Shown piece by piece: positions 9,701 to 36,685 of a stretch of DNA of 64,000 nt. The notes beneath the pieces are model-generated. The model ran no database searches and was not told where the DNA came from. It was given only the letters and a program-made list of their open reading frames with translations. Both the position numbers and the translations under genes were made by a program. The stretch spans positions 1 to 64,000 of IMG/VR virus record IMGVR_UViG_3300013426_000018; one strand, written 5' to 3'. Source of the stretch: a virus (lineage: Duplodnaviria > Caudoviricetes). Every line of letters begins with the position of its first letter. The stretch's first letter is position 1.

Positions 9701-12548
9701 AGTAATTACATGCTATGGATTAAGGCTGTCTACTGACGCTTTTAAAGTTTTAGCATTTTCTTCAGCTTGCTCTTCAGACAAACGTAAGTCTAAGAACATC
9801 TACTTAAGCTCGGCAACACTCTTGCCATGCAAAGACTATAAAACAGTTCCAAAATTTTCTCCATTAATAGTCGCTTTATCAAAACTTTCCATGAGATTAG
9901 AAAGAGCCTCTTGAATTTCATTAACGTTTCCAGAAGCCATAGCAATATTAACTTGACGAAATGCTTTATCTAACCCAGTGGCCTATCGGATAGTCTAAGG
10001 AATCAAAGAAGATAGAGATCTTAAATTATTTCTTACTGTATTAATTGCTGCTCCAGCCTATTCAGTGCCCTCTAAATCCCCTAAAGTATCTGACATTTTA
10101 GCTATCTAATCAAAAAAGTTTGAAGACATATCATCTGTAAACAACTTAAAACTCTTAGTATCAATATCAGGATCAGTAAGAGCTTCTAACATTGTTCTGT
10201 TCATAGTATTATACTATTCAGCAATGTCGTTATTAGCAACATCTAAAAACTGTAAAAAGTCTCTGGTATCACTAATAAGAGTATTATATTGCCCGCCTTC
10301 ATTATGAGTACTTAAATTTTCTAATTGATTAATACTACTTTGATCGCTATATTTTCCCAAAGCCACTTCATTAACATCAGTATCTAATAAAGCCTATTTC
10401 TTTAATTCAACATTCTAACGAAGTGTCTCTGTCTGTTGAGTTAAAGCTAACTATTGTTTTTGCTAAGCTTCAATAATATTTAATTCTGTCTAATATCTTT
10501 GTTTTTCAGCATCGCTTAATTTGTCTTCAACTCCAGCATAGCGAAGCTTCAAAGCAGTTAACTAATTGGCCTACTTTAATTCAACCCCGAAAGCAGAATC
10601 TCTGTTGATACCTTTTTCTAACTTAGAAGTATCTTTTCCTTTGTTTTTAGCATCCTAATAAGTATCATATTTTTTGAATTGATCTTCAGTAACTGAATTC
10701 ATCTATGTTAAAATCTTCTAATAAGCTTTATCAGAGCCTTTCGTTAAGACATCAAAATTATATCTTGCCTTATCAATAGCTTCTGGAATTTTATTAGAAA
10801 AATTAGCTAAAATGACACCGCTTAGAGCCATTATAATAGTCTTTAAGCCGCCAGCTTTATCAATAAAATTATCTAATCCACTAATAATATCAGCTAATCC
10901 ATTATTTAAAGAAATAAAGAACTTATCATCAATTAAATCTTGGTAAACACCTTCTGCGGCGGCCCGCACTCGCTTCTACGCAGCTTCCCAAGATTCCGCA
11001 TAGATCTCAGCTTGCTATTCCAGAGTGCCAGTAGACTACTCAGCAACACCAACATTTTCTTTAAAATATTCATAATTATTCATTAAAGCCATAAACTGGC
11101 TATACTATCTTACCATTAATATCTTATGTTTCCATAAGAATTAGACTATATCTTCACTCATTTCTAAGCACTTTCCATTTCAGATATCTCTTACTCCCAT
11201 ATGGGATAGTCGTTGAACTTGAATGACCAAAAGTCATTCGAGCTGCTGATTGTCCAATCTTTAACTTTATTACTTAATATAAGTAGTTAAAGCTCTAAGG
11301 ATTTTCCAGCAATTAAAAAAGTTTTACGCGAGCATAAAATAGTTTACCCGCAACTGTTTGTGCCAAGGCCATTTTCTAATCGTCGGCTAATGTTTGCCAT
11401 TTAGGACCCAGTTCATCAAGAATTTGGTCCATATCTTTAAGGCCACCGCTAGCATCTTTAATATTAATACCAACTTTATCCAAAGCACTAGAGTATTTAT
11501 TCAAAGTGGTACCATCATCAAGCGTCTCTCCCTAGTTTAAGCCCTAAATTCTCGCAAAGAGTGTTTTAAAGGCATTGCCGACAACGTCTGCGCTCTCACG
11601 AGTCCTTGCTGTAACCGTAGCGAGGGCCGCTGTCGCATACTCATAACTTAACCCAACTGTTTTAGCGGTTGCTGCAAATTTATTAATACCTTCAGAAATT
11701 TCGTCAGAGCTAGAAGCAGTTGCGGCACCCAATGCTGTCATAACATCAGCGTAATAAGACAATTCTCTACTGCCATCTGCGAAGTTATTCCAAACGGCGG
11801 TCATCTGATCAGCAATCTTAGAGGTACTTTCGCCTGTCACATTGGCCATTTTGATGGTCGTTTCAGTGCGTTCACGTACCTCATTGTCTCCCAAACCCTA
11901 TTGAAAAAATATCAAACTGCCCTTTGTGTAGTCAGTGGTTGTCGTACTGAGTGCTTTGGCGGCCTTATTTGCCTGTTCTGCAAATTTAGCCATCTAATCA
12001 GTATTATATCCAGTAACAATTCTTATATCTGTTAAAGAAGCATTAAGATTTTGTGCATAGCTATAAGCACTCTATAACGCTCCAGTGAATCCTCTAATAA
12101 TATTATTAGAAATCTAATATTTAGCTGTCTATTTTAAAACCTTGGCAAAGTCCTACATACGAGAGCTAACTTTTAGCATTGGCTAATCGGCCTAAGAAAT
12201 GCTCTAAGCCAGCTTTAAGAAAGCTTGCTAACCAGTATCTCCAGCTCCTATTAATCTGGTAGATAATTCCTATACATTCGTATTAGAAGATTTTAAACTT
12301 TTATCCAGAGCACTTAAATCAAAACGCCCCGTTTTAGCATTATACGCATTATTCAGGTGATAGGATAGTTCTTTCGCAGCTTCTGCTGCATCACGAATCT
12401 TTATCGCTTCAGTACTAAAATTAGCTTTGGTCGTACTGGCACCATCTAATGATATTTTATTTAATAGGGATTGTAATTCTTGTATTGAAGCTTTTGCCTA
12501 TCCGGTATCAGCAGTAAACTTCAATCCAACATTGATCTAATTTCCCAT
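3719..12548 (-). CDS. Tail tape measure protein, ~2865 aa, 2 exons (12548-11346, 11113-3719), TAG=Gln
   Basis: Eight track ORFs lie in the exon-2 frame and end in TAG; TP901-like core (YYADVMTALGAATASSSDEI, VGNAFKTLFAR); splicing gives LAQTVAG|VRQYSQFMALMNN. Confidence 0.92.
11114..11345 (-). ncRNA. Group I intron, ORF-less, 232 nt, in tape measure gene
   Basis: Core elements AATTGCTGGAA / AATCAGCAGC / GTTCAACGACTA / AAGATATAGTCT; P1 GCGGGT:GCTCGC with U-G; terminal G; removal restores frame. Confidence 0.92.
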
Positions 12549-12592
12549 TAAACAATCTCCTTTCTCTCATATCCTTTTTTATTTTGCAAAAT

Positions 12593-12624
12593 AAAAAATA
12601 GCCGTGGAGATAAACCCCACGGCT
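12593..12624 (-). terminator. Intrinsic terminator-like hairpin upstream of tape measure
   Basis: AGCCGTGG...CCACGGCT followed by ATTTTTT on the minus strand. Confidence 0.65.
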
Positions 12625-12669
12625 TATTCTCTACCTAATTTTAAAGATAGAATCATAAATTTATTTTAA

Positions 12670-13203
12670 TTAGCCCATCTTATTGAGGACTTCTTGCAAG
12701 AACTCGACACCCTCTCGATTAGCTAAATCTTTTTTAATCTTTTCCGCATCTAATTCAAGATTCTTATAGTCTGTTGCAGTGGCATCCATAATACCCAAGA
12801 AAGAAGTCTTATAATCATAAATAGAATTAATAATATTATCAATTTGGGTTGTAATAAAATTATACTCTTCTTTAGGAATAACTTCTATCACAACTTCCAC
12901 TAACCCAGAACTTACTAAATTATCATAAAATTTATATTTATTCTCAGTTTGTTTTTCGGTAAAACTAAGATTTGTATAATATCGAATTAATCCAATAGTA
13001 AAAAGAATTTCTACCTGTAAATAATTCACAAATTTATAACCTACAGATTCTGCGTCAATACCATTTACAACAGATTCAACTAGTTCCATTTTTTCTTCAA
13101 TAGGAAGATACTATTTTACTTCAATAACATTATTATTAAAGTCAATTGTTTTGACTTCATTATTAACCTTTGCCGCAAGTTTAGAAAATGCTACTTTTGC
13201 CAT
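12670..13203 (-). CDS. Probable tail assembly chaperone (177 aa, one TAG)
   Basis: ATG 13203 with AAGGAG; in frame with track ORF 12670-13089; sits just before tape measure. Confidence 0.6.
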
Positions 13204-13235
13204 TATCTTATTCTCCTTTTTTCTCATATATATGT

Positions 13236-13264
13236 ATTTTACCAAAAATTTTTTATTAAGTCAA
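13236..13264 (-). promoter_or_regulatory. Sigma-A-type promoter
   Basis: TTGACT-17 bp-TAAAAT with TG extended -10. Confidence 0.6.
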
Positions 13265-13268
13265 TAAC

Positions 13269-14591
13269 TTATTCATACATTGTATTAAAACTATTATTTA
13301 AAAATTCTTTATAAGATAGCGTTAAATTAGCTATCCTAATATAAAATCCTCTTCGCTACATTAATGTTGCTAAATCCGAGAAACCTTCTGTCGTTAAATA
13401 AAATTCATTTCTTGCATAGCCAGTTTTTAAAATATTATTACTTAAATTTAAATTAGCATATGCAGCAAATTCTTTATACTGCTAGTTAAATTCTTGTTCA
13501 TTAACAGCGGTTTTATTCATAACTGGTTCAGTTGTACTAAAATCTTTTAATAGGTCATATTCTGGCGCATTTATCATTGAATACTTCTATCTATTACCAT
13601 TATTCATTAAATGTCTTTTATAGTTACTTTTTGACTAAATATTTACTCCTAAATTACGAATTTGTTTGTATATATCTTCACTTAAAGTTATAGTAATTTT
13701 TAAGTTAGCTGAAGAAGCTTTATTATTAACTAATCTCATTAGATTAGAAAAATCTTGAGCAGTTGAAATTGATGAAGATACATCTATTTTACCCTTATTC
13801 ATTTTTGTACCATTTAGCTTTAAAACACTACTAACCCATTCTTGCAATTCATCACTTATTGCTACCTACTTTTGCTCATTCATTTTATTATATCCAATTA
13901 CAGATAAATTAATAAAGCTATTTGAACTTTTTTGTATAGATGTCATATCCTCTAGAAGGAGTCCTTGAATATCTTCAATCAACTAAGCATTAAAGTTTTC
14001 CCCAAAAAAGCTATCCATCGTTTTCCAACTGCCTGTATTTAATCCATTTAATCCAGCTTTATTAACTATCCAAGTGCCGAGATCTTCTAAATATTGCCCT
14101 TTAGCCCGATAATACTGCCATGGTCTAGTTGAATCATCTTTTAATAAGTTAATTAACCTAGTTATGTCTGGAGCTGAAACTTTTCCCTCATTTGGATTAA
14201 CATTATCTACAACTTTTTCTAATTCTTGCACTAAATTTTCTATATTAGAAATAGTAGCTTCTCTTTCATTCTAATTCCAGTCTTTTAAACTATTACTGGC
14301 ATTATGCCATCCATTCAATCCATTATTAATTCCCTATACTAATTTAGCGAACAGGTCATTATCAGTACCCTTATTTGCTTCTCCAATTAAAGAGTCTAAG
14401 AACTTATTTAATTGTTCAACCGCCTTTTTACCAGCATAAGCTTCTTTCAAAGCATCAACCTGTATTTTTAAAAAAATCTCTGGAGAAGCTGAATCATTAT
14501 CAAAAAAATTATTTAATGGAGCTAACTTGTCATAAAATAAAGATGGATTTAAACTTTGATCGAAATGCCATAAATCTTTTAAATATCCCAT
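13269..14591 (-). CDS. Hypothetical tail-region protein (440 aa, TAG=Gln)
   Basis: Track ORFs 14334-14591, 13983-14231 and 13635-13847 are in one frame, joined through TAG; AGGAGG RBS. Confidence 0.8.
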
Positions 14592-14658
14592 AACTTATCC
14601 TCCTTTTCTTCCACAAATAAAAAAGGGGGAGAGATATTTCTATCTCTCCCTAAATCAA

Positions 14659-14823
14659 TTAATCATTTTCAATGGAAATGATTCGTCTTTGCTACTTCTT
14701 TTTAGGTCGAGTAGCAATAATAGGAATTTCTTTCTCTTCAATTTTTATTTCTTGTTTTTCTTCTTCTGGCTTTTTTTCTACTTTATTAGGCCGCACAGGC
14801 CAAGAAGTATGTTTTATAGCCAT
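14659..14823 (-). CDS. Small charged hypothetical protein (54 aa)
   Basis: TAATG overlap with the major tail stop; one TAG; followed by a terminator hairpin at ~14617-14651. Confidence 0.55.
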
Positions 14824-17800
14824 TAGAACATACTATCGTGTTCAGACTCATGCACAGTATTATGACGATGCAAAGACTGACTACCAGCTTCTTCGATAAT
14901 TTGAATTACAGAGAGGACTTTCTTAGTTTTATCAAATTTAGTATAATCGGGGAAAGCATCCATTGTAAATGTGAAGCTAGAAGGATCGCCAGAAGAAGCC
15001 ATAGTAAAGGTAAAGTTAGACTGAATCTTGCAATTAGGAATAATAAATTCAGCTGGCATATCAACACCATTCTGGTCACGGAATAAAGTAGAAGCCTCAA
15101 GGTAATAGTTACCACCAAATTTATCAGGAGTAATCTCAATCTGACGAGCATTGCCTTCACGGGCAACATAATAATCAACCATTACACTGTCAAAAGAGGG
15201 CAATTCACCTTTAAGTTCATAAATATGATGTTCATCACTTTCGCCTTCAGTTTTTTCAGTGTAAATTTTTGGTAACTTTTTGATAGTGATAACATAACCT
15301 GTTTCAGCTGTTCCAGCAACCTTTGCATGCTCAGGAATATAAGGCTCAGAGACAATTTCACCATTCTTCATAAGCATAACATAAGCATAATTATCGCCTA
15401 AATTATCGGGTAAATAAGGTTCTTCACTTAACTTTACAGTAAAAGACTTTACATCAGCATTAGTTTGATTTTCAGTCAGCTTTGTCTATGCGTCTTCATC
15501 AGAATACAACTCTACGCCACCATTCTTGGCAACAGTTTCAGTCATATGTTGATAAACAGGAGCATCTGGCTTAGCATCGATCAAACCGGCACCAGAAAGA
15601 ATCATAAAACCTTCTGGAGAAATTAGAGCATCCTCCATGGTAAAGGTAACAGTTCTCAAATATCTTTTTAATTTCTTAAAAAGTTAGACTATATCTTCAT
15701 CATAACTCAGCTTGGAGATTTCGAGGAGTTATGACATGTTCCTCACTGTCTCTAATAAATAGAGCACTTAGTCGTTGAAGTTTTTAATTATTATTCGCCA
15801 AAAATCTGAAGTAATTAAAAATTTTTCTAATTCATTAAAATACTAATAAGGAATAATTAGTAGAGGAATTCGATTATTTTCAGCAAAAGTCTATTTAATA
15901 TAATCATGTCGTTGAGTATAAATTAATCTCTCTGGAGTATTCCATTGAGTTCCTCTTGCCGAATAGTGTTGATCTCCATTATTCTCTATTAATCCAATTA
16001 ATTCATTTTCATTATTAAATAGCGCAAAATCAAAAGGGAGAGTGTTTTTATCTTTACAATCTTCAAATCGATATTCTCGTTTAAAAGGAATCTAATATTT
16101 TTCTAAAATCTAAGCCATTAAAGCATTAGCTTTAGAATTTATACAACCACATGAAGTTGTTTCCCCAGAAAATAATCTTTTTCCAAGGACAGTTGCTTTA
16201 TTTCCGCAATCACACTTACAAATATAATAATAATCTTGCCCTTTTAATTCAATATCTTCAATTGTTAATAAACCATGTTTTTCTCCAATGTGATTAGAAG
16301 CATTTTCTTTGAATCTCTTTTTTGTTAATTCTTTCTTTAAACACCCACAACTTTTAGAGCTTCCTTGCTTTAAACTACCTCCGAAAACACTTTTTATTGT
16401 TCCGCATTCACATCTACAAATATAATTTCTTGATTTACTAACATCTTTTTTTAAAACTTCCCATTTTCCAAAATGTAGTCCTAATAAACTTTCTGAGCAA
16501 CTTTTAGAACAAGCCGTGTTAGTTCCATTTATTAAAGCAGTTCCTCTTACTGGTCTAATATTTCCGCACACTTCGCACTTACATAAAAAATATTTAATTC
16601 TATGTTCATTGCTATGGTCAAATTTAATGACCTACCAATGACCAAACTTCATTCCTGGCTAAATCTCACTTGGAGTCATATTTTAAAGTCTCCTTTTTCA
16701 ATAGATTAATAATTAACTTACCTGCGGATTATCTTATAATTTTATTCTTTTTACTATACCAAGGTAATTACTCTTGCCATTATACGCATCACTACTATAA
16801 TTTAGTAAATAAAATCTTCAAGAACTCCCCGCAATTCAAGGAATAGATTCAGAAGGAGACGAACTGAGACCTCTCTTCTCCTTCCCAAGCTACCAGTCGA
16901 GCATTACCACGTCCCAATGTCTTCCATGCGGATCGCTAAACCGCACGCGTTAAACAGCTATACTTTTCTATATATGTATAGTTGAGACTATATCTTAATC
17001 TTTTCAGATTTTAAATATTTCAGCTGCCAAAAGCTTGCAGCTTACTTCCTCACGGAATAGTCGTTGAACATTAATTAAAATTAATATCTTTGGTAAGATA
17101 AGTCCAATTTCTTTTATTTTTAATAGCTGAAATTGTGCTTTTAGAGCAATTATACTTTTTACAAATTTGACTATACGGTGCTCCATTTAATAAATCATTG
17201 ATTATATCAATAACTTGACTTTCTAATAATTTACTTGCTGGATTAGTTTCTCCAATTAAATGAGCAGCTAAGCCAAGCTTTACGGCATGGATTCTATTTT
17301 CTTGATTAGTAACCCATTCTAAGTTATCAATACAATTATTTAATTTATTTCCATCAATATGATTAACTTGAAGTTCTTCAAAATTGTCAATAGGATTAAA
17401 ACATCTCATAACTAATCTATGACGAAAATAAAAACGTTGAGTCCCATCTTTTAAAGTTAAGCAATTTTTTACATAGCCATTTTTTAAAGCATCTTTCATT
17501 TTTTTCTCACCATTATCTGTAAAAAGCTCGCCATTTTTATTAATATAATAACGATCTTTAACTTCCGGTACAAATTTACTAATTTGGACTAATTCCATTA
17601 ATAAAAATCTCCTTCTCTTAATTCTAATTTTTTGCTGCTGATTACCTTATGTGGATTTTTATAAGGCGTTCCAGCAATTAAAATAATTTGCTAATAATAT
17701 TTCTATTATTAGGAGCCAACATTAACCCTAAGCATAAACTGTCGTCGCAGCACCTTCCATACTGGAAGTTTTTAACGTATCAAAATAACACACTGGTTCA

Positions 17801-18098
17801 CCAGCGTAGAAAATCTTGTTGCCGATTTTTTGAGCAGCCTTAGCCTTTAAAACGACATCACAAATTTCTCTTCATAATATAATATTATGGACTATCTCTT
17901 ACTAATGTTCTAGCCATTAGCATATCCATTTGGAACTACGTATCAATAGTAGCCCTACAAAATCGATTAGGATTCCTAGTCTCTACAGCATTTTATTGCC
18001 ACGGGATTCTTACGTTCCCCGTTAGCTTGCTTTAAAAGCAAACCCCTCTGATAAAAGGAAAGGATATGTTAGTGCGAGAGATTCACACCAAATTTCAT
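14823..18098 (-). CDS. Major tail (tube) protein, 344 aa, 4 exons (18098-18085, 17872-17725, 16914-16876, 15656-14823)
   Basis: Spliced product MKFGV|REICDVVLKAK...TVYAQG|GRGNARLVAWEGE|RTVTFTMEDALISP...; exon total 1035 nt; position between neck genes and chaperone/tape measure. Confidence 0.85.
15657..16875 (-). mobile_element. Group I intron 3 of major tail gene (1219 nt) carrying an endonuclease ORF
   Basis: AATTGCGGGG / AATCCGCAGG / TTCAACGACTA / AAGATATAGTCT; terminal G; P10 CAGTTC pairs with 3' exon GAACTG. Confidence 0.88.
15768..16679 (-). CDS. Intron-encoded endonuclease: repeated CxCxCG zinc-binding modules plus Vsr/DUF559-like C-terminal nuclease (303 aa, TAG=Gln)
   Basis: CKCEVCG, CRCECG, CKCDCG, SCGC; C-term LPFDFA...IENNGDQHY...HDYIK; ORF runs into the intron R element. 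Confidence 0.8.
16915..17724 (-). mobile_element. Group I intron 2 of major tail gene (810 nt) with HNH ORF
   Basis: AATTGCTGGAA / AATCAGCAGC / GTTCAACGACTA / AAGATATAGTCT; GGT|TAA 5' site; terminal G. Confidence 0.9.
17071..17598 (-). CDS. Intron-encoded HNH homing endonuclease (175 aa, no TAG)
   Basis: HRLV...QVNHIDGNKLNNCIDNLEWVTNQEN HNH_3-type motif; C-terminal HTH-like segment. Confidence 0.92.
   Translation of the reverse strand: MELVQISKFVPEVKDRYYINKNGELFTDNGEKKMKDALKNGYVKNCLTLKDGTQRFYFRHRLVMRCFNPIDNFEELQVNHIDGNKLNNCIDNLEWVTNQENRIHAVKLGLAAHLIGETNPASKLLESQVIDIINDLLNGAPYSQICKKYNCSKSTISAIKNKRNWTYLTKDINFN
17873..18084 (-). ncRNA. Group I intron 1 of major tail gene (212 nt, ORF-less, second subtype)
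   Basis: GCTAACGGGGAA / AATCCCGTGG / TGTAGAGACTA / AAGAGATAGTCC; P1 GGTGT:GCACT; follows a 14-nt first coding exon. Confidence 0.88.
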
Positions 18099-18114
18099 AT
18101 GTGTTTTATCCTCC

Positions 18115-18897
18115 TTATAGAATAAACTTATTTTTTTTCCTCTATAAAAATAACTCGGGGTTATTTTTGTACATATATTGACCCAACCGGCAAGTATCTT
18201 TTTTCCCAAACTTCAAAGAGCAACAAGAATCATCAAAACTTCCACCTTCAATACCTGCTTCTTCTTTTAAAATTTTTAATAACTTAATTAAAAATTTCTT
18301 ACTTCCACAAGTAAAGGCTGAGTTTAAACGATTATTCTTTAACTGCATAACACAGCCATCTCCATCAAAATAACCTCGAATGAAATCAGGTAAATATTCT
18401 TTGGGAACATTAGGAAAATCTAAAGATAAACTTTTTCTTTCCATACCGCCGAGGGAAACAATATCATCATAAATTACTTTACAACTAAAATTAATACGAG
18501 AAGACTATCTATCAACAGAGTCATATAAATTTCCTTCAAACTGTAATTCTTCCGCAATTTTCTTCAATATATATTTATCTTTTTTATGTAAAGTAATATC
18601 AAACATTCGCCCATTATAAATATAACCATTTGCAAACCAAAAGCCCAAAATATAAGACATATTATTAGACCATGTTTTAAAATAATCTTGATTAATATTA
18701 TATTTACGCAAATTGCTTGACTAAATTCTTGATTTTTCTGACTAAGATATTTTTTTTACTAAACAGTTATTTCTATTACAAAATGAATAAATCTAACTTT
18801 TAGTATACTATCCATCAAAAAAATCAACCCATTGTGGCAAAGTTTTACTATTGCTCTAAGACAATAGAAGCTCCTTGTGTTCCGGTAATATTGGCAT
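18115..18897 (-). CDS. Free-standing double-motif LAGLIDADG endonuclease (260 aa, TAG=Gln)
   Basis: YILGFWFANG and FIRGYFDGDG motifs; track ORFs 18505-18711 and 18142-18444 joined via TAG; no flanking intron core found. Confidence 0.88.
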
Positions 18898-18912
18898 ATT
18901 ACACTTCCTCTA

Positions 18913-19647
18913 TTAATGTAAATTTTTCATCCAATTCTCAGGATGTTTGTCAGGTTTACCACCTGCTAAGCGAGAACGAATATCAATATCCCAATCAACA
19001 TATAATCCATATCTTTCTATTAAATCATATAACTAAAATAAAGTATAATTCTTTAATTCATTTAAAGAAATATGTAATCCAATAGTAAGAATAGACAAGT
19101 ATTGAGTTAAAGTACTACTATTAGAACCACCTTTTTCTTTAGCGATTCTATCTCGTCCACGCATCAATTTCTAAGCAATCTCTTTCGCTTTATCTCCTTG
19201 CGGATTAAAAGATTGCTAATCCATAGGCCCATTCTTTGAACAAAAAACAAGCCTAAGAATATTCTAAAAATAATCAAAATTATTTTCATCAATAGTAATA
19301 TTTCCATCAGATGACATTAAAGCCAAAGACCTTGGAGTAAATAACGCTTTATATTTAGGCAATAATAACTATAAAGTCTAAATTGTAGCATTTTTTTTAT
19401 CTTTGGCTTTTTCATCCTACATTACCATCATAAATATCTAAAAGTTTGTTATATCGACTAAAGCTTCTTTGCCCTCAACAACAAACATATTCTTATTTAA
19501 AGTTAAGCACTATGCCCCTGTAAAATAAATATTTTCACCAATTAAAGATATTTCCATAATAGTTGGCTAATGAACAATAATAGTACATTCTGGAACAGGC
19601 AAATCTGTTCCGCATATCATAGCTAATCTATAATCAATATCATTCAT
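18913..19647 (-). CDS. Hypothetical neck/tail-region protein (244 aa, TAG=Gln)
   Basis: Continuous frame when TAG is read through (MNDIDYRLAMICGTDLPVPEC...WMKNLH); missing from the ORF track. Confidence 0.75.
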
Positions 19648-20224: not shown

Positions 20225-20242
20225 TCCTTTTTCTCCTTTCTA

Positions 20243-21376: not shown

Positions 21377-21674
21377 CTTTACATCCTGCCAATAAAGCTA
21401 TAACTTCAAAGACTGTTTTTCTAAAGAGCTAAAAATCAATATTTTCTTCAATCTTTAACCCTTCTAGTTTAGATAGAATCTATAAATATTCAATCTTGTG
21501 TAAGAAAATTTCATCTAAACCAACAATCTCTAAAAGTACTGTTTCAAGCTACTTCTGCCAGTCTTCTTCATTCTCCCGCATTGGAATTAATTTCCAAATC
21601 TAATTAGTTAAACGCATTACGTTTTTATTAATAACTTCTTTTGAAAATTCTATATCATATTTATTCATCATCAT
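21369..21674 (-). CDS. Hypothetical neck-region protein (~100 aa, TAG=Gln)
   Basis: Open frame overlapping both neighbours (RLTNQIWKLIPMRENEEDWQKQLETV). Confidence 0.7.
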
Positions 21675-23517
21675 CTATTGGTTGGCGTAATATAGACCAA
21701 TTCGATTTATAAACGCCATCCTTTCCTGTTTTTCTACGTTTATATAAACGCTACATATGATGAGACTAACGCTAGCATTCATTAAGCAAGCTAATCATCT
21801 TAGATAAATGATTGGCTTGGCTAGTCATTTTAAAATCGGCTATAACAAAATTATTAACGTTATGGCTTTTTATCCATAACTTCTAACTTTTTATTTCAAG
21901 TTAGCTTGGCATATCTTTTCATCCTTGTGGGATGCTTAGTCTCGTGGGAGTTATTATCTTTGAGTTTCTTTTAATATTTCAAAATAATGATTTTGTTTTC
22001 TTTTTAATGCTAAATAATTATGATTGTAAAATAATTCTCCAAGACGTAGACTATTTTTTTTGAAATAAATAATCTAATAAGCTTCATGGCTTCTACCTAT
22101 CGTTGGAATCGGAAAGTTATATTTTTTATTTAAATATTTTCCTAAATCTTCTAAAAACTCTTTATTGGCACTAACAATAGACATTGAAACTTTATTATCA
22201 TTACCACCTATTATGCTTCCATCTCCATCAAAATATCCTCTAATATAATCAATCATATATTCATCAGGAAGATTATAAGGCAAAGATTTTATTTTAAAAG
22301 TCTTATTATTTACAATCCCATATTTTTCAGCATTTTTTCTAATTTCTTTAGAATTAAAAGTTAGAGAAGAAGCAGGAGATTCTCCACTATAAAATTGATA
22401 AATTGGTCCAGTGTATCCTAATTCTTCCTTTATACGATAAAGTATTTCTTCGTCTTTTCTAGCAAGTGTTAATACAATTCTGTTTCTGGCTCCTCGCGTA
22501 TCAGGTAAATATCCATCAGCAGCTAAAAAGCCTAAAATATAAGCACCATTATGACTTTCAAATACATAGTTATCATTAATTTGATATTTTCTAAGATCTA
22601 CTTCATCATCTGGCTTTGCTTTGATAGCTTCATAAAAATTTCTTAATTCTATATCATTATCTTTTAAAACTCTTCTAACTTTATCAGCGCAGAAAAGTCT
22701 ACCCATCTATTTTGAAATATAATTCAAACCGTATCCTTGTTTGTATAACTCAACAATTTTTTGCTATTCTTGTTCATCAATAATTTCCTTTTTTCGGCCA
22801 CCTTTTTTTGCCCCAGGATTAGACCGAATGATACATTTATTTTCTTCTAAAACTCTTTTTATAACAGAATCGCCAAAAGGTGTATTAAGCTAAACGCAGA
22901 TATCTTTTCGTGTCATTCCATTGTTGTACAAATTTACGATTTGATTTTGTAGCTCTTGTGGAACTATAATTTTACTCATTAAGTTTTATCCTCCTATGCT
23001 CTGTGCGTGTCTTGACTTTTAAATCAAGACTTCCGCTCTGATTCCCATCTCAGGGTTCCAGTTTTTTACTAAGATTTTGATAATTATTACTAATTAAAAA
23101 GGCCCGATTTGACCCAGTATATTTCATACGCGTATTTTCAATAGAAGTTACTTGTCGCTAAACCCATGCGCACATCATCAAAATAGCTAAAATATTTATT
23201 TCTTCTGAGGTAAGTTCTACCTCAAAATTAGAGTGTTCTATAACCACTTTCGGAGGTTTTCCATCTTCTCCATCGGGTGTTTCATTCCATAACATACCTA
23301 TAATAAAATCAGAGGTTTGAACTTCATCTTCGCCCTTAACCTCTGATTCAAGTGTATAATTATATAAATCACATCGAGGGAACTCAAACCCAGGAATTGC
23401 ATCAATTAACATATTGCGCAAGTCCCTAATTGTATCCTGTGGAGTTAATTCAACATACATATCATCGGTAACTTTACCGAGAAAGCGATTATAGATTTCT
23501 GTGAAAGGAGTTCCCAT
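21661..23517 (-). CDS. Probable head-tail adaptor, 194 aa, 2 exons (23517-23112, 21839-21661)
   Basis: Spliced ...IENTRMKYTG(S)DFKMTSQANHL...; exon total 585 nt. Confidence 0.75.
21840..23111 (-). mobile_element. Group I intron (1272 nt, third subtype) with LAGLIDADG ORF
   Basis: P1 GGGT:GCCT; CCCACGAGAC ... AAGATATGCC core; terminal G; removal restores frame. Confidence 0.85.
21954..22979 (-). CDS. Intron-encoded LAGLIDADG homing endonuclease with N-terminal HTH-like repeats (341 aa, TAG=Gln)
   Basis: YILGFLAADG and YIRGYFDGDG motifs; own GGAGG RBS. Confidence 0.9.
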
Positions 23518-23540
23518 CTATAATCTCTCCTTTTTAAAAA

Positions 23541-24182: not shown

Positions 24183-24202
24183 GAAATAATTTATATCTTA
24201 AA

Positions 24203-25306: not shown

Positions 25307-25330
25307 AATTTTCTTATCTCCTTTCCCTTA

Positions 25331-26161: not shown

Positions 26162-26180
26162 TTAATCTTTTCCTCCTTAA

Positions 26181-27701: not shown

Positions 27702-27715
27702 CTTTTAGCCTCCTA

Positions 27716-29374
27716 TTAACTCATTGACTCCCTATTAGCGATTGTCTTGGCACTCTTCTAATCATCAGATTTCTCTGGCCGACCAGCTTCACCATTATTA
27801 TCGCTCGATGTATTTTGCGTTTTGGCAGAATTATTTGAACTTTTATTGCCCAAAATGTCTTCTCCATTTAGAGTTGAACTCATTAAAGGAGGTATCATAA
27901 TCTGGCTAAGTTGTAATATTTCATTCTCAAATACAGCCGCATTAAGAATAAAGCTCTAAGAATGCCCAAGAGCGATCTAGGGTAACATTTTTGAGAAACC
28001 TAATTGAGTCTATTCTTTATACATTTTAGATAAAGTCTAGTAATTATATTGAGTAGTTTCTAAAAAATAAAATTTAAAATTATACTTTTTAGAATTAGGA
28101 TTCTTTCGTAATACTATTCTATCCATAAAAGCATTTAACTAAAACAAAAATGACCGCATAGTGGATTCATCATCAAGAATCGATTTTTCCAGTGACAGAT
28201 TACCATCTGTGTTAAAAAGATTACGGGAAACACCCATGCTATTATAAGCAGTTCTTTCAGCTTGTTCTAGATTATCAGTAGAAGAAGTGCTTACAGTATC
28301 AGCTAGACTAATATCATCTACATCTGTAAAAGTAGTCAATACATCTACGCCAATGCAATTTTTTAGCATTTGGACAGCATTATTATGAATGTCTCGAGCT
28401 TCATCAACATCAAATACTAAATCATTATTTTTATCGAGAGGGAGTTTCTAAACGACAATCTTTAATAGCTGCTACATTAAACGCTTGCGTTCAAGCCCCT
28501 ATGCTTGGTCTAGATCTATTAAAGAAGGAATAGAATTTAATAAAACAGGAATATCACTATTATTAATATTAAATTTTACAGTATTCTCAGGATCAAGCAA
28601 ATACCAACCGTTACTAGCTAAAAACATTGAAGTAGTTGGATTATAAACATCAGTATCCATTAATTTGCCCTATTTATATAGAATGTATCCTTTTTGAAAT
28701 TCTGTGGGGAATAACCCCAAGACTCTCTAACGATAAGTGGTATTTGGAAAAGTATCAAAAAACTTCATATTAAATTCAACTGCAGGTTTATTACCAACCA
28801 TATACCTGGTACGGCAATACTCTATTGGAAGCTATTGAATTACTAACTAATCAGAATTGTCAATTATATAGCCATAATAACAACCATCCCGCACAACTTT
28901 GGCGCAAATTTCTCCACCCAACTTTTTAATATATGAATTATCGAAAAAAGTTAAAGCATTAGAAAATTCTTTTAAAACTTTATCTTCATTGGCACTATCA
29001 CTATAAATTTGAGGCATCATATACCAATCAAATCTATAAAGATAAGAAAAATAATCGCATACTCTTTGATAAATACCATTTAATTTATAAAAAAGATTAG
29101 AAATCCTACGCATTTCCATAGCATCATTCGTAGCAATGGCATTATAAATACCTTGTTTCGTAATTTGCCCAACCTCAGCATACTCGCCTTTATAATTTTC
29201 CATACGCAAAACTGCGTTATCTAAAGATTTAACACCAACTTTAATTTTATTAAATTCGACATTTTTTTCTTGGCAATCCTAATAATCTAAAGGAAACTGA
29301 CTAGGTCCAAAAAAATCAAAACCTTTTAAATGAGCTCTTTCTACTCTCTTCGCTTTCTAACCAAATTCTTCCAT
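27716..29374 (-). CDS. Portal protein (552 aa, TAG=Gln)
   Basis: ATG after AAGGAGG; joins track ORFs 28847-29209 and 28139-28369; size and position between terminase and protease. Confidence 0.82.
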
Positions 29375-29399
29375 TTCCTACCTCCTTTCTTATGAATTT

Positions 29400-29760
29400 T
29401 TAATAGCCTGCACGGCTCATTATATAATCATAATCAATTAAATTTTCTTCATAATAAGGGATTTCTATTAATTTAAAATCATGAAGAGCACAAAAACGTC
29501 TTTTTTTATTATCATTATATTGCTATTGGAAAAGCCCTTTCTTTCCCCCAAATTTAGTGCTTGGTTCGTAATGTTGCTTTCCCTAAAATTCTATTATAAA
29601 ATCAATATACCCATCATCATCGAATATAACAAAGTCAAAACGATCGTAATGGCTTCCCATTAGAACTCTTTAAATCTGGAAAGATATATTCTTCTTTAAA
29701 ATTAAGCCCAGCTTCTTCAAGTATCTCATGAATGCGAATTTCTCCACGAGAAGACATCAT
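29400..29760 (-). pseudogene. Vsr/DUF559-like small nuclease, frameshifted by an apparent 4-nt insertion at ~29641-29646
   Basis: MMSSRGEIRIHEILEEAG...KPLR then FDFVIFDDDG...IEFQGKQHY in a shifted frame; span 361 nt = 357+4. Confidence 0.7.
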
Positions 29761-29796
29761 AAATAATCACCTACTTTAATCTGATAAAGGCTTTCT

Positions 29797-32700
29797 TTAA
29801 TTAAAGAAAGCCCAATCAGAAGCTACAAATTTTTTCTTCTTTTTCTTTTTATCTTCTTCTAATTTTAAATAATAGAGGCCATATTCCATTGATGAGAATT
29901 TATCCTTACGAATTCTTTTATTAACTTGCTTAAGATTAATATTAGCTCCTTCAGTTTCTTCTCTTAAGTTGGCCATTTCCTCACCTAAAATGGAAGTTAA
30001 GTTAAAAGGAAGTAAATATTTTGCCCTCTGTTCTGTTGTCATATTTTGGCCTGCCTTTTGAGCAAGTAGTTTTTGCTATGCCATACGAGGGTCTATTAAA
30101 AATTTAACTTTTCCAGAAGCTAACTGAGATTTAACATTAACATGGGCTTCTGAATTAATTGCGGCGTTGGCCTTTATAATATACATGGCATCAAGCTCAG
30201 TGTCATTTGTTTTATATCTTACATATTCACCTTTATCATCATTATAAACACCAAAAGGAGGTAATACGTCTCCTGTCTCTTGTTCAATTTGCGGTTTGAC
30301 CATATAATCAACAAGGCCCGCACCATTGCCATTACCATCAATTACAATACGACTAGCATTATATTTATAATACAAACGTTTTAAAAATATTGCTTGATCT
30401 TCAAAATGTTCATCGTTCATAGTATACATATTAACTAATGTTTTTACAGGAATACCTTGTGGCTGAGGAGTCGATTTAAAGATACAAAATACTGTATCAC
30501 ATCCTTTAAAACGAGCCACGTCCACAGATATTACATATGTAGCGAATTTAGATGAACGCCCTGAAGCTTCATATTCAGGTTGATTAAGCACGCGATTACG
30601 TGCAAATATTTCTTGATTAAAATAAGCATCTTCTGTTGTGCCACTCCAGCGGCTTTCCAAATATCTTATGATGTTTTGTTAACATCTCTTTGACTCACGC
30701 CAAAGTTGAGACTATATCTTCTTGGTATTACACTTCAAATTTTTTAAACTTTACTCCATTAATGGATAGTCGTTGAACCTCTCAATTTATTAAAAATGAT
30801 TAGGCTGCTGATTGTCTCGCTGAGATTTTCCAGCAATTCATAATATTTAATGAGTCCAAAATTTTAAACTCTCTTTCAAAAGATGCTTCATTAAATGTCC
30901 CTTCGGCCTTCTAATCCGTTATAAAGGTCTTACTTTGAAGTCCCATGGCAACAGGAGTTCTCCATGTACCTCCAAGGACAATACAACGTTCGGGCTACAT
31001 GACCATACGCACAAGTAGACCAATCAAACGATCATATGAGTATGTTCCTTTATCATTGTTACTTATAATTTCTTATAAGATTAGACTATATCTTTATTGC
31101 ATTTATTATTTTTACAATAATCTCCATTTCCTATTAGTACTCCATAAAGGATAGTCGTTGAGCATTACTACCGAGGTAAGAAAGTCCATGTTTTCCCGGC
31201 TTTTATATTAGAAATTATCTTTCTATTAGCATTAGGAACTTTCTTCCTTAATAATATTTGTTGCTGATTAGCATAATATAAAAATTTTAGCTTTCCAGCA
31301 GTTAAAAGATTTTAAGCTGAGCATAAAAGGTTCTACCCAGCAGTAGTTCCATATTTTCCATGTGAATCGCTAAATCACATGCGTTAAACAGCTATATGTC
31401 TCCATATAGAGAAGACTATATCTTCATCTTCACCATTATGTGTTAAGAGTTTATTACTTCAATTATGCTTATAATTTACTCCATAAATGGATAGTCGTTG
31501 AACCTTTCCCTTGATAAAGGACTTGGCTGCTGATTGCCTTTTCAGGTTTTCCAGCAATTCTAAAAATTTACTTTTGCTAATTTCTTAACAATGATACTAA
31601 AATTAATATAAATCTAACTTTTATTTACCGGTTCAGTTTCGCACGTTGTGCCATCCATTGCACGTCGAGGAACTGCCATTACAGGTATGATGACTTCACG
31701 CAAGATTTTGTCATCGATACCAACACATTCTTCCATACTTCCCATAATATTATCCTATGAGTTTTTTATCTCATAGCTCTTATAATTTTTATTCTTATAA
31801 GATTAGCATATCTTTTCTTAATAATTAATTAAGTCCTGGCCTCGTGGGAAAATTATATTCTCTTTTTAAAGAGGTTCATTTCCTATGCGTTGCCCCTGAC
31901 TAATTTTTTAAATTAGCCTTCGGTTCGGATTAGCATTTCAGCCTCTCTGCTTAATTCCAGGATTTATACACGGCAGTTAAGTAATAGAAGAATAATAATT
32001 GTCAATTAAATCTTTATAACTTTTTCTATGAATAACAGCGTTCACTCTATCTTTAGAAATTCCTAATTCTTTAGCAATTTCTATCTATTTTTTATTTTTT
32101 TGATTTTCTAAAATATAATTAATCTATTCTTGTGTCAAAGGATTTTTTACATTTCCTCTTTTTCTATCTAAGCGCAGATGATTTAGATCATATTTCTTTT
32201 TTACTTTTTCTCTTATATCTTTTTTATTTTCGCTTGCTAACGAATTAAATTCTTTTAGATAATCCTAATAAGTTAATCCTTTTTTTAAACGCCAAAGAGC
32301 CTTTGAACTTATTTTGAAAATATCTGATAACAATCTATCATATCCGTCCTCTTCTAAGATAATAGACAAAATTTCAAAACAATTCTATTTAGATAATTTT
32401 TTTTTCATTATGAGGAACATAATTTTCTTTTAAATTCTCTTCTTTTAAATTAAGTTTTTTAGTATATTCTTGTATTTCATCTTCATTAATTAACTCTAAT
32501 CCATAAAGAGTATTTTTGCTTAAATTATCAATAACAGTATGGTCACAATTAAAATATCTTGATAAATATCTATTAATTCCAGAATATCTCTATAAAATAT
32601 GATAAAGTATACAAGCCTGATGATAACTAAAAATAGTTTTAGTTCCTTCTCCTCCCCAAGTTTCATTATATCCATTTAAATAACTATTATATTTCTCGAT

Positions 32701-35045
32701 CATTTTCTATTCTAAAATTAATAATTCCTATTCATTTTTTACTTCATAAGTATCCCAAATAAAATTAAAATTATCTTCTCCATATTTATTATAAGCTCTT
32801 TGCAATTTTATCGAATGATGCTACCCATTTTTTAAATCATTAAAATGGTGATATTTTCTGGCGTCTATGTCAATAGTCTACCCAATATACCTTTTTTGAT
32901 TTATTTTATTAATTATCTAATATATATAACCTCGCATATATTCACGTCCTTGTCTAATTTATTCTAATAGATATAAAATTTAGCAAAAACGTTTCTCTAA
33001 AAATCGACCAGAATAGCGTCATAAATTTTAATTCTACCGTGTCGACGCTAACCTCTAGAAGATTCTTTGGCCGCAAGATTATCAAGAACAGAATCATTCT
33101 TAAAGATATATTTTACATAGTCTTTACCTTCCTATGTCTTACCTCTTGACCAATTTATTTCTCTCTCTAATGGAGGTATTAGCCTACAAAGTTCCTATAC
33201 CTTTTGAGAAAGGATTTCCGCACTCTATTGTTTACCACCCGATGTCACAAAGAGATGAGCTCCTGGGTATAAGATACATTTTAATATTAAACCTAAAACT
33301 GTTAGAAATGATTTTGAATATGCCAAAATTTTCTATATATTACTATATAGCTTAGACTATATCATCAATGTTTATTTTTTCAAATCTTTTAAATCTTACT
33401 CCATAAAGGATAGTCGTTGAGCCCAATAGATAAGTAATCTATTTTGGTTGCTGATTGTCCCATCGGGAGTTCCCAGCATTTTAATAAATTTTTTCCATTT
33501 ACATGGCCCGCACATAATCTACGGGGAAAAGTTGCATACACGTATTGATAACGCATTACCGCACGCAAAAAACTTAAATCTTTACATTACTGTCTAAATA
33601 ATGCCAATATTAATTGCTCTATCTTTCAATAGAGAAGAGACTATATCTTTATCTTATGAATAAGATAAAATGCTTTTCAAAACTTCTTACTCCTTTACAG
33701 GATAGTCGTTGAACTTATGAATAATTTCTTTAATTTTTAATTCAATTTCTTCTTTAGACCAGGTGTATGGAATTATATATAACTCTATTCCATTATCAAT
33801 ACAATACTACTATTTAATCTTATCTCTTTTCTAAAAAGTTTCTAAACTCCCTTTAAAAAAGTTAGTTTCTTTATAATGCTATGCTCCATTAAATTCAATA
33901 GCTATTTTATAAATATTATTTTCTAAATAAAAATCAAATCTTTGTTTACTATTATTTAATCTTTTCTCTTGCTAAAAAGGAATACTATATTTTTGTAGAA
34001 TTGTTTTAATAAAAAATTCTCCATTACTTTCTTTTCGAGCACACTTTGGACAACTACTACGGCCATGAATAATATCTCCCGGGCAGACTTCCCAGATAAA
34101 ACCGCAATCATGTTTTAAAAGAACTTTAGTTGTTTGATTTACATAAGGACTTATTAATGTGTAAGTCCCCCTCTAACTATACTGATTCACTTCATCTATA
34201 AATTCTTTTGCTGTACGATTTCTTTTTACAGAAGTCTAACATCCACATCTCAAATGCCTCTTAAAATCTCTTAAAGTAGTGCATCTTACATGACCGCATT
34301 TTTTACATTTAACAGTATAATAAGTATGAGTACCTTTTACCTCAGTGAACAGAATAATATATTCGTTATTTAATTCTTCTAAGATTTTTTGTCTCTATAT
34401 AAGATTATGACTCTAACAATTACTACATCCATATTTTTTAGATTTTACAAAAAAATTTGAAAATTTATTTATTATAATAATTCTCTAACAGTTATTGCAT
34501 TTAACTTTTCCAGGTTTACCTAATCCGTTATATTCTAAAATATCAAAGTCTTCTAAAGGGAATCTCTACTTTATTCGATCTTGAATCTCTATTAAAGTTA
34601 ATTTTTTCATTATTCTCTCCTTCATAAGTGCTGATTATCTATTATTAGAACTTAGGCTTACACCTTATTCCATCCAAAAACTTTTTTCTACTTTCGTTCT
34701 TAATTAATTTCGAGAATTAAAAATTAATTAAGCATTTTGGCTTTAAGACTTCCCAGCGTTTAACATTTTTTTCTTTAACCCTTTTAGGCTAAAGGAGCTA
34801 TTTTTAACCCGCTAATAATAGAAAAACTTAAACTTGCCTTCGTTTTCCTTTTTTTCTTCTGGAGTAAATTCTTCCCCAGTAATGACTTTTGGCCCATAAA
34901 CCAAAAAATCAATAAATAAATCTGGGTATTCACGCCAGAAGGCAATATACTTGCGCAAAATGGGCTTTACTGCTTCAATACGTTCTTCTGATATGCCAAT
35001 TTTTTTCTTTGTATTAGATAACTCAAGCAAATCTTGGAGAGCCAT
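29797..35045 (-). CDS. terL: Terminase large subunit, 592 aa, 7 exons (35045-34807, 33572-33521, 33323-33036, 31742-31606, 31348-31335, 31053-30866, 30657-29797)
   Basis: Spliced total 1779 nt; YYQR, Walker A FPRAYSKS, Walker B-like GSMEEC, ITTAG coupling motif, RNase H-like ISVDVAR and IVIDGNGNG. Confidence 0.93.
30658..30865 (-). ncRNA. terL group I intron 6 (208 nt)
   Basis: P/Q/R/S core; P1 GAGTTT:GGACTC; joins SFEREF|ESRWSG. Confidence 0.88.
31054..31334 (-). ncRNA. terL group I intron 5 (281 nt)
   Basis: P1 GCTGGGT:GCTCAGC; CTCAACGACTA / AAGATATAGTCT; terminal G. Confidence 0.9.
31349..31605 (-). ncRNA. terL group I intron 4 (257 nt)
   Basis: P/Q/R/S core; 3' peripheral block closely resembles that of major tail intron 2. 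Confidence 0.87.
31743..33035 (-). mobile_element. terL group I intron 3 (1293 nt) with GIY-YIG ORF in the P1 loop
   Basis: Exon end CACGGT pairs with GCCGTG lying just after the ORF; CCCACGAGGC ... AAGATATGCT core; terminal G. Confidence 0.88.
31977..32937 (-). CDS. Intron-encoded GIY-YIG endonuclease (TAG=Gln), apparent +1 frameshift in an A9 run at 32397-32405
   Basis: MRGYIYQIINKINQKRYIGQT...GYNETWGGEG; frame breaks at the homopolymer, then continues to an HTH-like C-terminus. Confidence 0.85.
33324..33520 (-). ncRNA. terL group I intron 2 (197 nt), inside the Walker A codons
   Basis: P1 CCCGT:GCGGG; CTCAACGACTA / GATATAGTCT; joins FPR|AYSKS. Confidence 0.9.
33573..34806 (-). mobile_element. 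terL group I intron 1 (1234 nt) with endonuclease ORF
   Basis: Core motifs flank the ORF; joins YYQRV|FLRAVMRY. Confidence 0.88.
33687..34610 (-). CDS. Intron-encoded zinc-ribbon plus Vsr/DUF559-like endonuclease (307 aa, TAG=Gln)
   Basis: CxxC repeats, CPKC, RFDFYL...IEFNGAQHY...RDKIK; ends KFNDYP through the R element; absent from the ORF track. Confidence 0.82.
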
Positions 35046-36685
35046 TAATCGGGATTCTCCTTAACAAATTGTCGCAATTCATCTTCATCCATTTCTTGAG
35101 ATTGGAATTCCGCAAAATCTTCAAAATCTTTATCAGTAGTTATCTAACTTTCGATATCTTCCATTGCCATATCATCAAAATCAACAATATCATTTTCATT
35201 TTTAGCTTCAGCGTCTTCTTTTGCATTACGCTCAATAGCAGCTTGAAGTAATTCATTTAAATTAGTTTCTTCTTCAACCAACCTACGAGTATAACGTTGC
35301 ATATCTTGAAGAGTTATATCAACTCTATCATTTGGCTTATCTGAGTAAAATCTTTCAATATAACCATCTTTTTCACAAAGAGCAATTAGCTCTCCAACAG
35401 AATCAACACATTCACCATTTTCTGCTTTATTCTGAGCGGCTGTACATAATTATTAAATTACTGACTATTTTTTACTTATAATTAAATATAAGGAAATCAT
35501 TTCAAATTGCGTATCAATAGCAATCTTACTTTCCCGCCCAAAAGGCAAAGGAAATAGTCGATACAGGTTTATGCGCTAAGGCACATATTTCCCACGAGAT
35601 TACTTTATAGTTCCCTCGTTAGCTTAATTAAATATTAAACCCCAGTGATAAACTGGAAAAATTTTTCATAGTCCACAATTTGAACTTACCACTTTTCATA
35701 AGAGCATCATAAACTTTGCTCATCTTCTAAAAGCCATCTACCATAATTTTCTTTTGTTTCCAAAAGGATCAGACTATATCATCTACAAAAGTAGTTCTTC
35801 ACTTCCAAATAATTGTACTTCCTTGCGGAATAGTCGTTGAACTTTTTTGCCCATGGCAATTTTAGTTGCTGATTACCTATACGGCTTCCAGCAGTTCAAA
35901 GAATTTAATGGGGACGTAGTCCCATCCCCAATATCAATAAGCTAATTCATTTTTAGAGATGTCTTACAAATAAATTTTAATGTATCAACATGCCCAGCAG
36001 TCTAAATATCATAGGACTCCATCATATCATTATATAACTATTCAAGCTAAACCCATTCGGCTGGTTTATAGCCTTTGCCCCATTTAAGACGCAATTGGAG
36101 CTTTTCTTCATCAGTTAAATCAATATCTATGTCTGGAGTATCATCAACTTCTGTAAAATAGTCGTCCTAAGGCTGGCTAGAAAATTTATTAGCTTCCACT
36201 GGCTCAGGTTCATTAACATAAGCCGGAATTGCGATTTCTTCATCCATATTAGGAATAAGGAATTTGGGGTCATCAAGAGCTTTGGTAATTTCCTATTGGT
36301 CATAACCTCGGTCTTTCATAGCCTATTTTAATTCATTTTGTTCTTTTTCTTTTAAAAATTCAGTGTCTTTCCAACGATAATCTTTATACTAGATCATTCG
36401 CATTTTGCCAAGATACCTACCTATAATAGTTGCTCCGGTCAATTTTGTTTTATCCCGACCGTATTTCTCCATTAGGCTATACCATTGACTAGGTATATAA
36501 GGAACATCGGCTTCTTGCAGAATCCACATATAAGTATCTGGGTCCCAATTGTTGACGTGCATTGTTAAACATTTTTTACATTGATGGAATTTCCCATCGG
36601 GATATTTTTCTAAGTTATTAGATGAATAGAAATTTTTTTCATCCATTGTTTTGTGGCATTTTTCACAATATAAAGTCATTGCCAT
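35045..36685 (-). CDS. Zn-finger-containing protein coupled to terL (positional candidate for small terminase), 3 exons (36685-35924, 35741-35683, 35444-35045)
   Basis: CEKC/CKKC N-term; spliced LIDIGD|VDGFQKMSKVYDALMKSGKF|TAAQNK; TAATG overlap with terL start. Confidence 0.78.
35445..35682 (-). ncRNA. Group I intron (238 nt, second subtype)
   Basis: GCTAACGAGGGAA / AATCTCGTGG / TGTATCGACTA / AAATAGTCA; shares TATTGATACG with major tail intron 1. Confidence 0.85.
35742..35923 (-). ncRNA. Very small group I intron (182 nt)
   Basis: P1 TGGGGAT:GTCCCCA; AACTGCTGGAA / AATCAGCAAC / GTTCAACGACTA / GATATAGTCT. Confidence 0.9.

Follow-up and report, generated by a model that had tools for sequence, protein, structure and literature searches.

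A heavy load of group I introns in a TAG-recoded SPbeta-like phage genome and its probable origin in selfish homing

The stretch of DNA analysed here, called the window, comprises bases 1-64,000 of the 173,969-bp virus record IMGVR_UViG_3300013426_000018; genome coordinates in the following refer to the whole record. This gut phage genome carries 27 group I introns in 174 kb, about 17.2 kb in total or one per 6.4 kb, of which 14 lie in the structural arm, 11 in replication genes and two in tRNA genes. We propose that the load reflects heavy parasitism, in which selfish homing introns accumulated, perhaps aided by interference competition, and we put the probability of this explanation at about 0.8. 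A preliminary description of the window had reported 13 group I introns in five genes, and its count, positions, three sequence types (9+2+2), terminal G and restoration of the reading frame all hold. It had favoured a late-specific gate on gene expression and named an "extreme intron sink" as the alternative; the genome-wide load and the patchy distribution among relatives support the latter.

Coding cover rises from 47% to 86% once TAG is read as sense, and the residue most often opposite TAG in alignments with relatives is Gln; on these alignments TAG is a Gln codon in the phage (genetic code 15). The nearest kin of its terminase belong to Geobacillus E3, Enterococcus and Bacillus SPbeta-like phages and to the recoded gut phage phAss-1, and standard-code homologues of two of the split genes belong to the SPbeta YomU/Tube and YonG families. 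By this kinship the phage is SPbeta-like, and its cultured relatives infect Firmicutes. Some relatives (L060, L120, L145-L147, L150) have in-frame TGA rather than TAG, which makes three genetic codes within this phage family. Where introns and code 15 are not both considered, core genes of the family are mis-annotated as fragments.

Intron ends, ribozyme features and genome-wide load

All 13 introns of the window lie on the minus strand, and their exact ends were mapped (Table 1). Excision leaves stop-free proteins of 406, 592, 194, 344 and 2865 amino acids under code 15. The alignment with intron-less homologues that had been suggested earlier bears out every junction: each of the 13 aligns gap-free and co-linearly with 68-137 intron-less homologous loci. 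A terminal G closes all 13 window introns, all 11 replication introns and both tRNA introns. The base preceding the intron (position -1) is U in 12 of the 13 window introns, the exception being intron B, which has A; P1 folds around the -1 U in 11, and the P1 of intron H is short and seen by eye only. The earlier claim of a P1 pairing in each intron thus stands for the 12 introns with U, but not in its usual form for intron B, where A lies opposite the guide G. The P7 helix with its guanosine-binding G-C pair is found in all 27 introns of the genome, in five sequences with compensating changes that keep the G-C pair.

By sequence, the window introns fall into type I (A, B, C, E, F, G, I, J and L), type II (D and K) and type III (H and M). 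The Rfam model RF00028 finds G, A, E, L, I and F above its gathering score (53-85 bits) and B (40.6 bits, E 4e-10) and J (37 bits, E 5e-9) below it. Introns C, D, H, K and M give no RF00028 match themselves, so the covariance-model check bears out the preliminary description in part; the P7 helix is present in each of these five, and RF00028 matches homologues of type II and type III introns, including an H-type homologue in the relative G047 (45.6 bits). Rfam cmscan alone detects just 5-6 of the 13 window introns and neither tRNA intron. Types I and II carry IA-like P7.1/P7.2 hairpins between P7 and P3, a feature of subgroup IA2 (PMC4227781); P7.1 folds in most introns, while P7.2 is clear in C, K and D and in type II and short or absent in E, I and L. 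Group I subgroups fit phage introns poorly (PMC11878797), and automatic assignment of P3 is unreliable in AT-rich sequence and hence was not used. Judged from their sequences, 12 of the 13 window introns have every testable group I feature, and intron B is a splice-site variant.

Intron B deserves separate treatment. Its upstream exon ends in A, opposite the guide G and within a 9-bp P1. Homologues at this site read W-E-G-E followed by R/K-T-V, with a purine as the last base of the Glu codon in about 87%. L285 has this intron at the same site, again with A facing G but with other flanking pairs; in the L286 orthologue the exon codon is Asp and the pair is a normal U-G. Alternative 5' sites ending in U were rejected for intron B, because they give extra residues or a broken frame against 111 homologues. 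Since the tail tube gene is essential, intron B probably splices with A at -1, a view in which we have good but not full confidence.

The replication module lies at genome 104-141 kb, and all of its 11 introns are preceded by U, end in G and restore the frame on removal. The preliminary description had found no introns in 26 kb of early or replication genes; window 38-64 kb is indeed intron-free, but it consists of accessory genes and is not the replication module. A whole-genome scan likewise finds no introns in the accessory genes of genome 36-95 kb. Introns per 10 kb number 2.9 in the replication module and 2.3 in the structural arm (p=0.54). For the 14th intron of the structural arm, near 173 kb, the 3' end is ambiguous, as either of two terminal Gs restores the frame. 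In the RecJ intron, P7 and the terminal G lie about 1 kb apart, and a LAGLIDADG-like open reading frame (ORF) begins within the 3' strand of P7 and extends past the 3' splice site.

Homing, the split suppressor tRNA and competing explanations

The introns sit in highly conserved motifs of essential genes. The window sites have a mean conservation percentile of 0.86, a value reached by none of 200,000 uniform draws, and group I introns are generally reported at conserved positions (PMC2814812). The sites are family-wide and mostly empty. The terL/structural module is almost always intron-free in 160 related loci, recoded and standard-code, and most relatives of either code hold no intron or one. 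Sites J, I, H, G/F, E, L, B and D are filled in scattered relatives of both codes (that of intron L also in L085), and no single site is conserved as occupied among the relatives. Introns E, F, G and M are missing exactly from a contig of 85% nucleotide identity (L008). Contigs from pig gut, at about 92% identity, have H and C but not their neighbours, end at the borders of G, B and K, and have exons joined across F, L and M. The terL gene of the TAG-recoded relative G052 (L294 6138-12404) holds eight introns; some occupy new sites, and for at least two the putative 5' exon does not end in U. The genome described here therefore tops a skewed range and is not unique.

Endonuclease-type ORFs of four types occur in 12 of the 27 introns, five in the window and seven outside, and together with the conserved insertion motifs they fit selfish homing. 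In the window, Pfam identifies HNH in intron C, LAGLIDADG in M and GIY-YIG in H. The ORF of intron J (about 300 amino acids, zinc-finger/Vsr-like, 11 TAG codons) is matched weakly, to DUF723 and, weaker, DUF2726, and that of intron B has no Pfam match and a Vsr-like motif seen by eye. The GIY-YIG ORF of intron H has 319 amino acids and is intact if window base 32397 is discounted: this single extra base in the record is absent from the contigs of all four compared runs, and a frameshift in the ORF was rejected in favour of an assembly error. Sister introns are found in different genes (M/aaa1, dnaB1/pol3, dnaB2/pol2, K/gyrB and Leu/sup), a pattern suggesting that introns reached new sites inside the lineage. 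Identity reaches 90% over 98 nucleotides (nt), between intron M and one of the replication-gene introns. Reverse splicing and off-target cutting are candidate routes to new sites (PMC3984707). Outside the introns, a full-length LAGLIDADG gene stands upstream of the tube gene in all three genomes with intron D, and loci without intron D have a short partial match in just three of about 135 cases (Fisher p 5e-5, for genomes that are not independent). This free-standing gene is a candidate collaborative-homing partner of the ORF-less intron D.

We propose the following course of events. On the transcript, each intron would fold, cut at the P1 pair and the terminal G, and rejoin the exons, as group I chemistry predicts; after splicing, proteins and tRNAs would be normal. 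The intron endonucleases and the free-standing one would cut intron-less alleles of co-infecting relatives, as in known homing, and repair of a cut allele would copy the intron in. Introns without an ORF may travel by co-conversion or collaborative homing, and new sites would sometimes be colonised from within the lineage.

Several points weigh against this proposal. First, the load is high here and in G001 and G052, against none in most relatives, so that homing alone appears insufficient. Second, 15 of the 27 introns lack an ORF, and their spread would require helpers that are themselves putative. Third, the splicing of the introns is predicted from sequence, and the cleavage of targets by their endonucleases is presumed by analogy. 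Finally, the sampling may exaggerate the contrast: relatives were retrieved with exon queries free of introns, a choice that may enrich for intron-poor genomes, and the models built here, which find 22 introns in this genome versus 0-8 in relatives, are biased towards it by the way they were built. RF00028 does not depend on these models and finds 13 in this genome versus 0-4 in each of 49 relatives.

The strongest competing explanation is interference competition in its own right, in which the endonucleases would destroy co-infecting intron-less relatives while the introns shield the phage's own sites, and the load would be retained for the benefit that the phage draws from it. It is compatible with selfish homing, it has been demonstrated for PhiPA3 against PhiKZ (as described in PMC11878797), and the endonuclease types present here, with the GIY-YIG ORF of intron H intact, are in keeping with it. 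However, more than half of the introns have no ORF, and intron-less relatives are the large majority; as the prime cause of the load, interference is possible but rather unlikely.

A different question is raised by the two tRNA introns, one of which splits the amber-suppressor tRNA gene. Its removal leaves a 7-nt loop with the anticodon CUA, split at CU/A (positions 35/36). ARAGORN calls the split gene Ser(tga); this Ser(UGA) reading was rejected, as intron-less orthologues read CUA and as that register has no terminal G in L218. In the homologous tRNA-Leu(UAA) introns of seven relatives, the terminal G lies in the same register as in the CU/A reading, and it stands two bases after a conserved motif in the homologous tRNA introns. 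The intron-less orthologues in G039 and G048 have the CUA anticodon and the shared 1-72 mismatch, G73 and odd T loop. Neither ARAGORN nor Rfam finds an uninterrupted CUA tRNA in this genome. With the sole CUA tRNA split, TAG read-through would depend on one splicing event, which would precede the making of most virion proteins, DnaB, RecJ and many endonucleases. Splicing and recoding would thereby be linked in series, and we see no evidence that the link is regulated or selected. Our literature search found no report of an intron-split suppressor tRNA, and the running text of Williams 2020 names no intron-split amber-suppressor anticodon.

Three further tRNA-related elements lie nearby or in relatives. 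The gene for tRNA-Lys(UUU) (genome 96840-96985, +) carries in its anticodon loop a 71-nt insert, itself tRNA-shaped and ending in CCA; this insert resembles the nested tRNA intron of Lak phages (PMC6784885), and relatives have similar 73-nt inserts in tRNA-Trp. A tRNA-like element at genome about 93425-93497 (+) has an 8-nt anticodon-type loop and is missed by ARAGORN and Rfam. A weak match to the Y RNA-like YrlA (32.7 bits; L002 11759-11857, +) adjoins the split tRNAs and lies upstream of a large ORF at genome 97755-99401.

The split suppressor gene invites the idea of a ribozyme timer, in which the tRNA(CUA) intron is selected and its slow or condition-dependent splicing delays TAG read-through. 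The same CU/A intron does recur on code-15-like contigs, where seven further distinct sequences place it in at least three tRNA scaffolds with the guide triplet GGA kept; a second CUA tRNA is not found in this genome, and splicing of T4 introns is impaired by an upstream stop codon and in stationary phase (PMC11878797). An extension would add a second wave, in which ribosomes pass TAG upstream of the mRNA introns and promote their splicing, an RNA-only feed-forward for replication and assembly. In its favour, of the eight Gln codons in the 12-codon stretches preceding introns, six are TAG, versus 108/244; this excess does not reach significance (p 0.07-0.09), and intron-less relatives often have TAG at most of these positions too. 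Against the timer, an unbroken CUA tRNA gene is present in 13 of 17 sampled relatives, two of them clear orthologues. The intron family also occurs in tRNA-Leu(UAA) of this and at least seven other genomes, one of them standard-code (the tRNA-Leu intron here is 80% identical over 148 nt to the suppressor intron), and several copies bear HNH-type ORFs as in mobile elements. Moreover, in-frame TAG codons stand in the exons of DnaB (5), RecJ-like (9) and NrdD (3), which means that recoding here is not limited to late genes, and DnaB and RecJ need TAG read-through, so the code switch must precede replication. The exons of gyrB and Pol III have no in-frame TAG, while two Pol III intron ORFs have nine each; with TAG in intron ORFs, endonuclease expression would come after the code switch, as Borges et al. 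noted for one Agate phage. We regard the timer as improbable, and its second wave to the same degree. Under selfish homing, the dependence of recoding on splicing would be a tolerated by-product and not a selected timer.

The late double gate of the preliminary description, by which 13 splicing events in virion genes atop TAG recoding would time morphogenesis, is very unlikely. All 13 introns do lie in the late operon, whose genes are TAG-rich, and a "molecular on-switch" role has been proposed for phage introns (PMC11878797). However, introns occur at equal density in the replication genes, their sites are empty in nearly all relatives with none conserved as occupied, and most relatives build virions intron-free, TAG-recoded ones and the 85%-identical contig among them. 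The least credible alternative of all is misassembly or dead insertions in a defective genome: the record is indeed an uncultured metagenomic contig with one single-base assembly error and short frame-breaking inserts in two other genes, but Logan contigs of runs X1 (possibly the source sample) and X2 carry the introns in long pieces, the junctions are exact against homologues, P7 covaries across types, and orthologous introns exist in other phages.

Feature map and other observations

Three of the five split genes in the window, terL, tail tube and tape measure, are securely virion or packaging genes. The YonG-family and phrog_3853 genes, which had also been counted among the virion-assembly genes, are placed there by position only. 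The standard-code homologue of the YonG-family gene scores 0.95 to YonG_N clusters, and the gene is a possible small terminase, again by position. A search of solved structures with the tail tube alignment gave no match.

Table 1. Coordinates of the split genes and of the group I introns (window and genome numbering coincide over bases 1-64,000)
Feature	Position	Strand	Description
YonG-family gene (phrog_3314)	35045..36685	-	3 exons of 762, 59, 400 nt; 406 amino acids; directly upstream of terL
Intron L	35742..35923	-	182 nt, type I, no ORF
Intron K	35445..35682	-	238 nt, type II, no ORF; sister of gyrB intron
Large terminase gene terL (phrog_2)	29797..35045	-	7 exons of 239, 52, 288, 137, 14, 188, 861 nt; 592 amino acids
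Intron J	33573..34806	-	1234 nt, type I, endonuclease-type ORF
Intron I	33324..33520	-	197 nt, type I, no ORF; within Walker A-like motif
Intron H	31743..33035	-	1293 nt, type III; immediately before Walker B-like motif
Intron G	31349..31605	-	257 nt, type I, no ORF; RF00028 84.9 bits
Micro-exon	31335..31348	-	14 nt, between introns G and F
Intron F	31054..31334	-	281 nt, type I, no ORF
Intron E	30658..30865	-	208 nt, type I, no ORF
phrog_3853 gene	21661..23517	-	2 exons; 194 amino acids; head-tail joining region
Intron M	21840..23111	-	1272 nt, type III, LAGLIDADG ORF 22979-21954 (4 TAG)
Free-standing LAGLIDADG endonuclease gene	18115..18897	-	just upstream of tail tube gene
Tail tube gene (YomU/Tube family)	14823..18098	-	4 exons of 14, 148, 39, 834 nt; 344 amino acids
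Intron D	17873..18084	-	212 nt, type II, no ORF; in codon 5 of tail tube gene
Intron C	16915..17724	-	810 nt, type I, HNH ORF 17598-17071 (no TAG)
Intron B	15657..16875	-	1219 nt, type I, ORF of 303 amino acids (6 TAG)
Tape measure gene	3719..12548	-	2 exons; 2865 amino acids; 89 TAG codons
Intron A	11114..11345	-	232 nt, type I, no ORF; RF00028 72.6 bits
14th structural-arm intron	genome ~173.5-173.25 kb	-	
Amber-suppressor tRNA gene	genome 95888-96183		220-nt group I intron 95923-96142
tRNA-Leu(UAA), short-arm	genome 96359-96689	+	252-nt group I intron at classical U34/A35 site
gyrB intron	genome 106172-106411	+	
Sak4-like AAA_24 gene introns	genome 118078-119191, 119415-120556	+	
DnaB introns	genome 122430-122690, 123038-124045, 124275-124515	+	
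RecJ-like intron	genome 126659-127887	+	
Pol III alpha introns	genome 132094-133041, 133402-134591, 135272-136525	+	
nrdD intron	genome 140100-140384	+	

Two genes contain short frame-breaking inserts of another kind. The Vsr-like nuclease gene right after terL (window 29760-29400, -) has four extra bases at about 29641-29644, which fall in the Arg codon of an LRFDF motif and shift the frame. This insert is absent from 137 of 139 relatives, and the X1 contig shows no gap there. In L065 and L087, whose terL genes also contain introns, four almost identical bases are inserted at this place and make a TAG stop. The insert in the nuclease gene is a candidate for a short ribosome hop. In the RecD-like helicase gene (genome about 129656-129660, +), five extra bases beginning with TAA split Walker A. 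Inserts of 5-8 bases stand at the same spot in 11 of 30 relatives (L223-L252). Each opens with a stop codon, and its last triplet resembles the preceding Ala codon; this looks like stop-hop translational bypassing.

The intron-free part of the window holds several repeats. The duplicated module at window 51500-55110 contains two 23-bp tandem arrays that differ from each other (52403-52512 and 53635-53721), and a 10-bp tandem array spans 54981-55106; the module is origin-like. Many strong sigma70-type promoter repeats lie on the plus strand of window 37860-56170, and a dispersed hairpin family with variable stems occupies window 38751-50027.

Comparison with known systems

The preliminary description held that phage introns are mostly single or few, a view that is now outdated (PMC7886860, PMC12880540, PMC11878797). 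Zeta crAss-like phages have up to 14 introns in 145-192 kb, together with stop-codon recoding (PMC7886860), and Jug jumbo phages of 360-402 kb have a mean of 18.5 short introns, 37 of 76 tested being spliced in metatranscriptomes (PMC12880540). Both resemble this phage in that core genes such as terL, capsid, polymerase and nrdD carry many introns. Unlike them, this phage is SPbeta-like and has two introns in tRNA genes, and its intron density is about three times the Jug average and about twice the zeta maximum, exceeding any that we found reported. Its 27 introns in 174 kb therefore set a high mark for phage group I load, and the filled and empty alleles at shared sites offer a natural panel for homing studies.

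Several IA-type introns per late gene are also known from the tail tube gene orf142 of Twort, with three introns, and from terL, pol and nrd of Bastillevirinae (PMC11878797). These likewise have tiny internal exons, tail tube and terminase genes as hosts, and endonuclease ORFs in loops. The present phage differs in its six terL introns as against two or three, its 14-nt exon, the three sequence types within one gene and its recoded genome.

The tRNA-Leu intron is like known tRNA-Leu introns in its U34/A35 site, short U-G P1 and terminal G; here, however, the host genes are phage genes, and a second copy splits an amber-suppressor anticodon at 35/36. A 2014 review placed all phage group I introns in protein genes (PMC3984707), and the tRNA introns of Lak phages were left unclassified (PMC6784885). 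TAG-recoded gut phages (bioRxiv 10.1101/2021.08.26.457843; phAss-1, PMC10607447) share TAG=Gln, its concentration in structural genes and a tRNA(CUA), and an Agate phage (Borges et al.) has intron endonucleases in the alternative code as well. Unlike in those phages, the suppressor gene here is hidden by an intron. Suppressors were found in just 40% of TAG-recoded genomes (Borges et al., bioRxiv 10.1101/2021.08.26.457843), and split tRNA genes could explain part of those missing; the present gene illustrates one way in which the suppressors of recoded phages escape standard tools. It also makes the question of intron regulation directly testable with one gene.

In collaborative homing (PMC3984707), a free-standing endonuclease serves an ORF-less intron. 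Here the two elements of such a layout lie about 30 nt apart and co-occur across genomes, and the putative target differs in being the start of the tail tube gene, with a predicted cut site.

For intron B, natural group I introns lacking U at -1 are known from group B IStrons (PMC4227781), which have G, and from the Leu.3Cg introns (Williams 2020), which have C; for A, our literature search, thin on this point, found no report. Intron B differs from both in having A facing the guide G in two phages, and a third phage has an orthologue with U-G at that site. Thus, intron B and its orthologues provide a natural comparison of A-G with U-G at a position that textbooks treat as nearly invariant.

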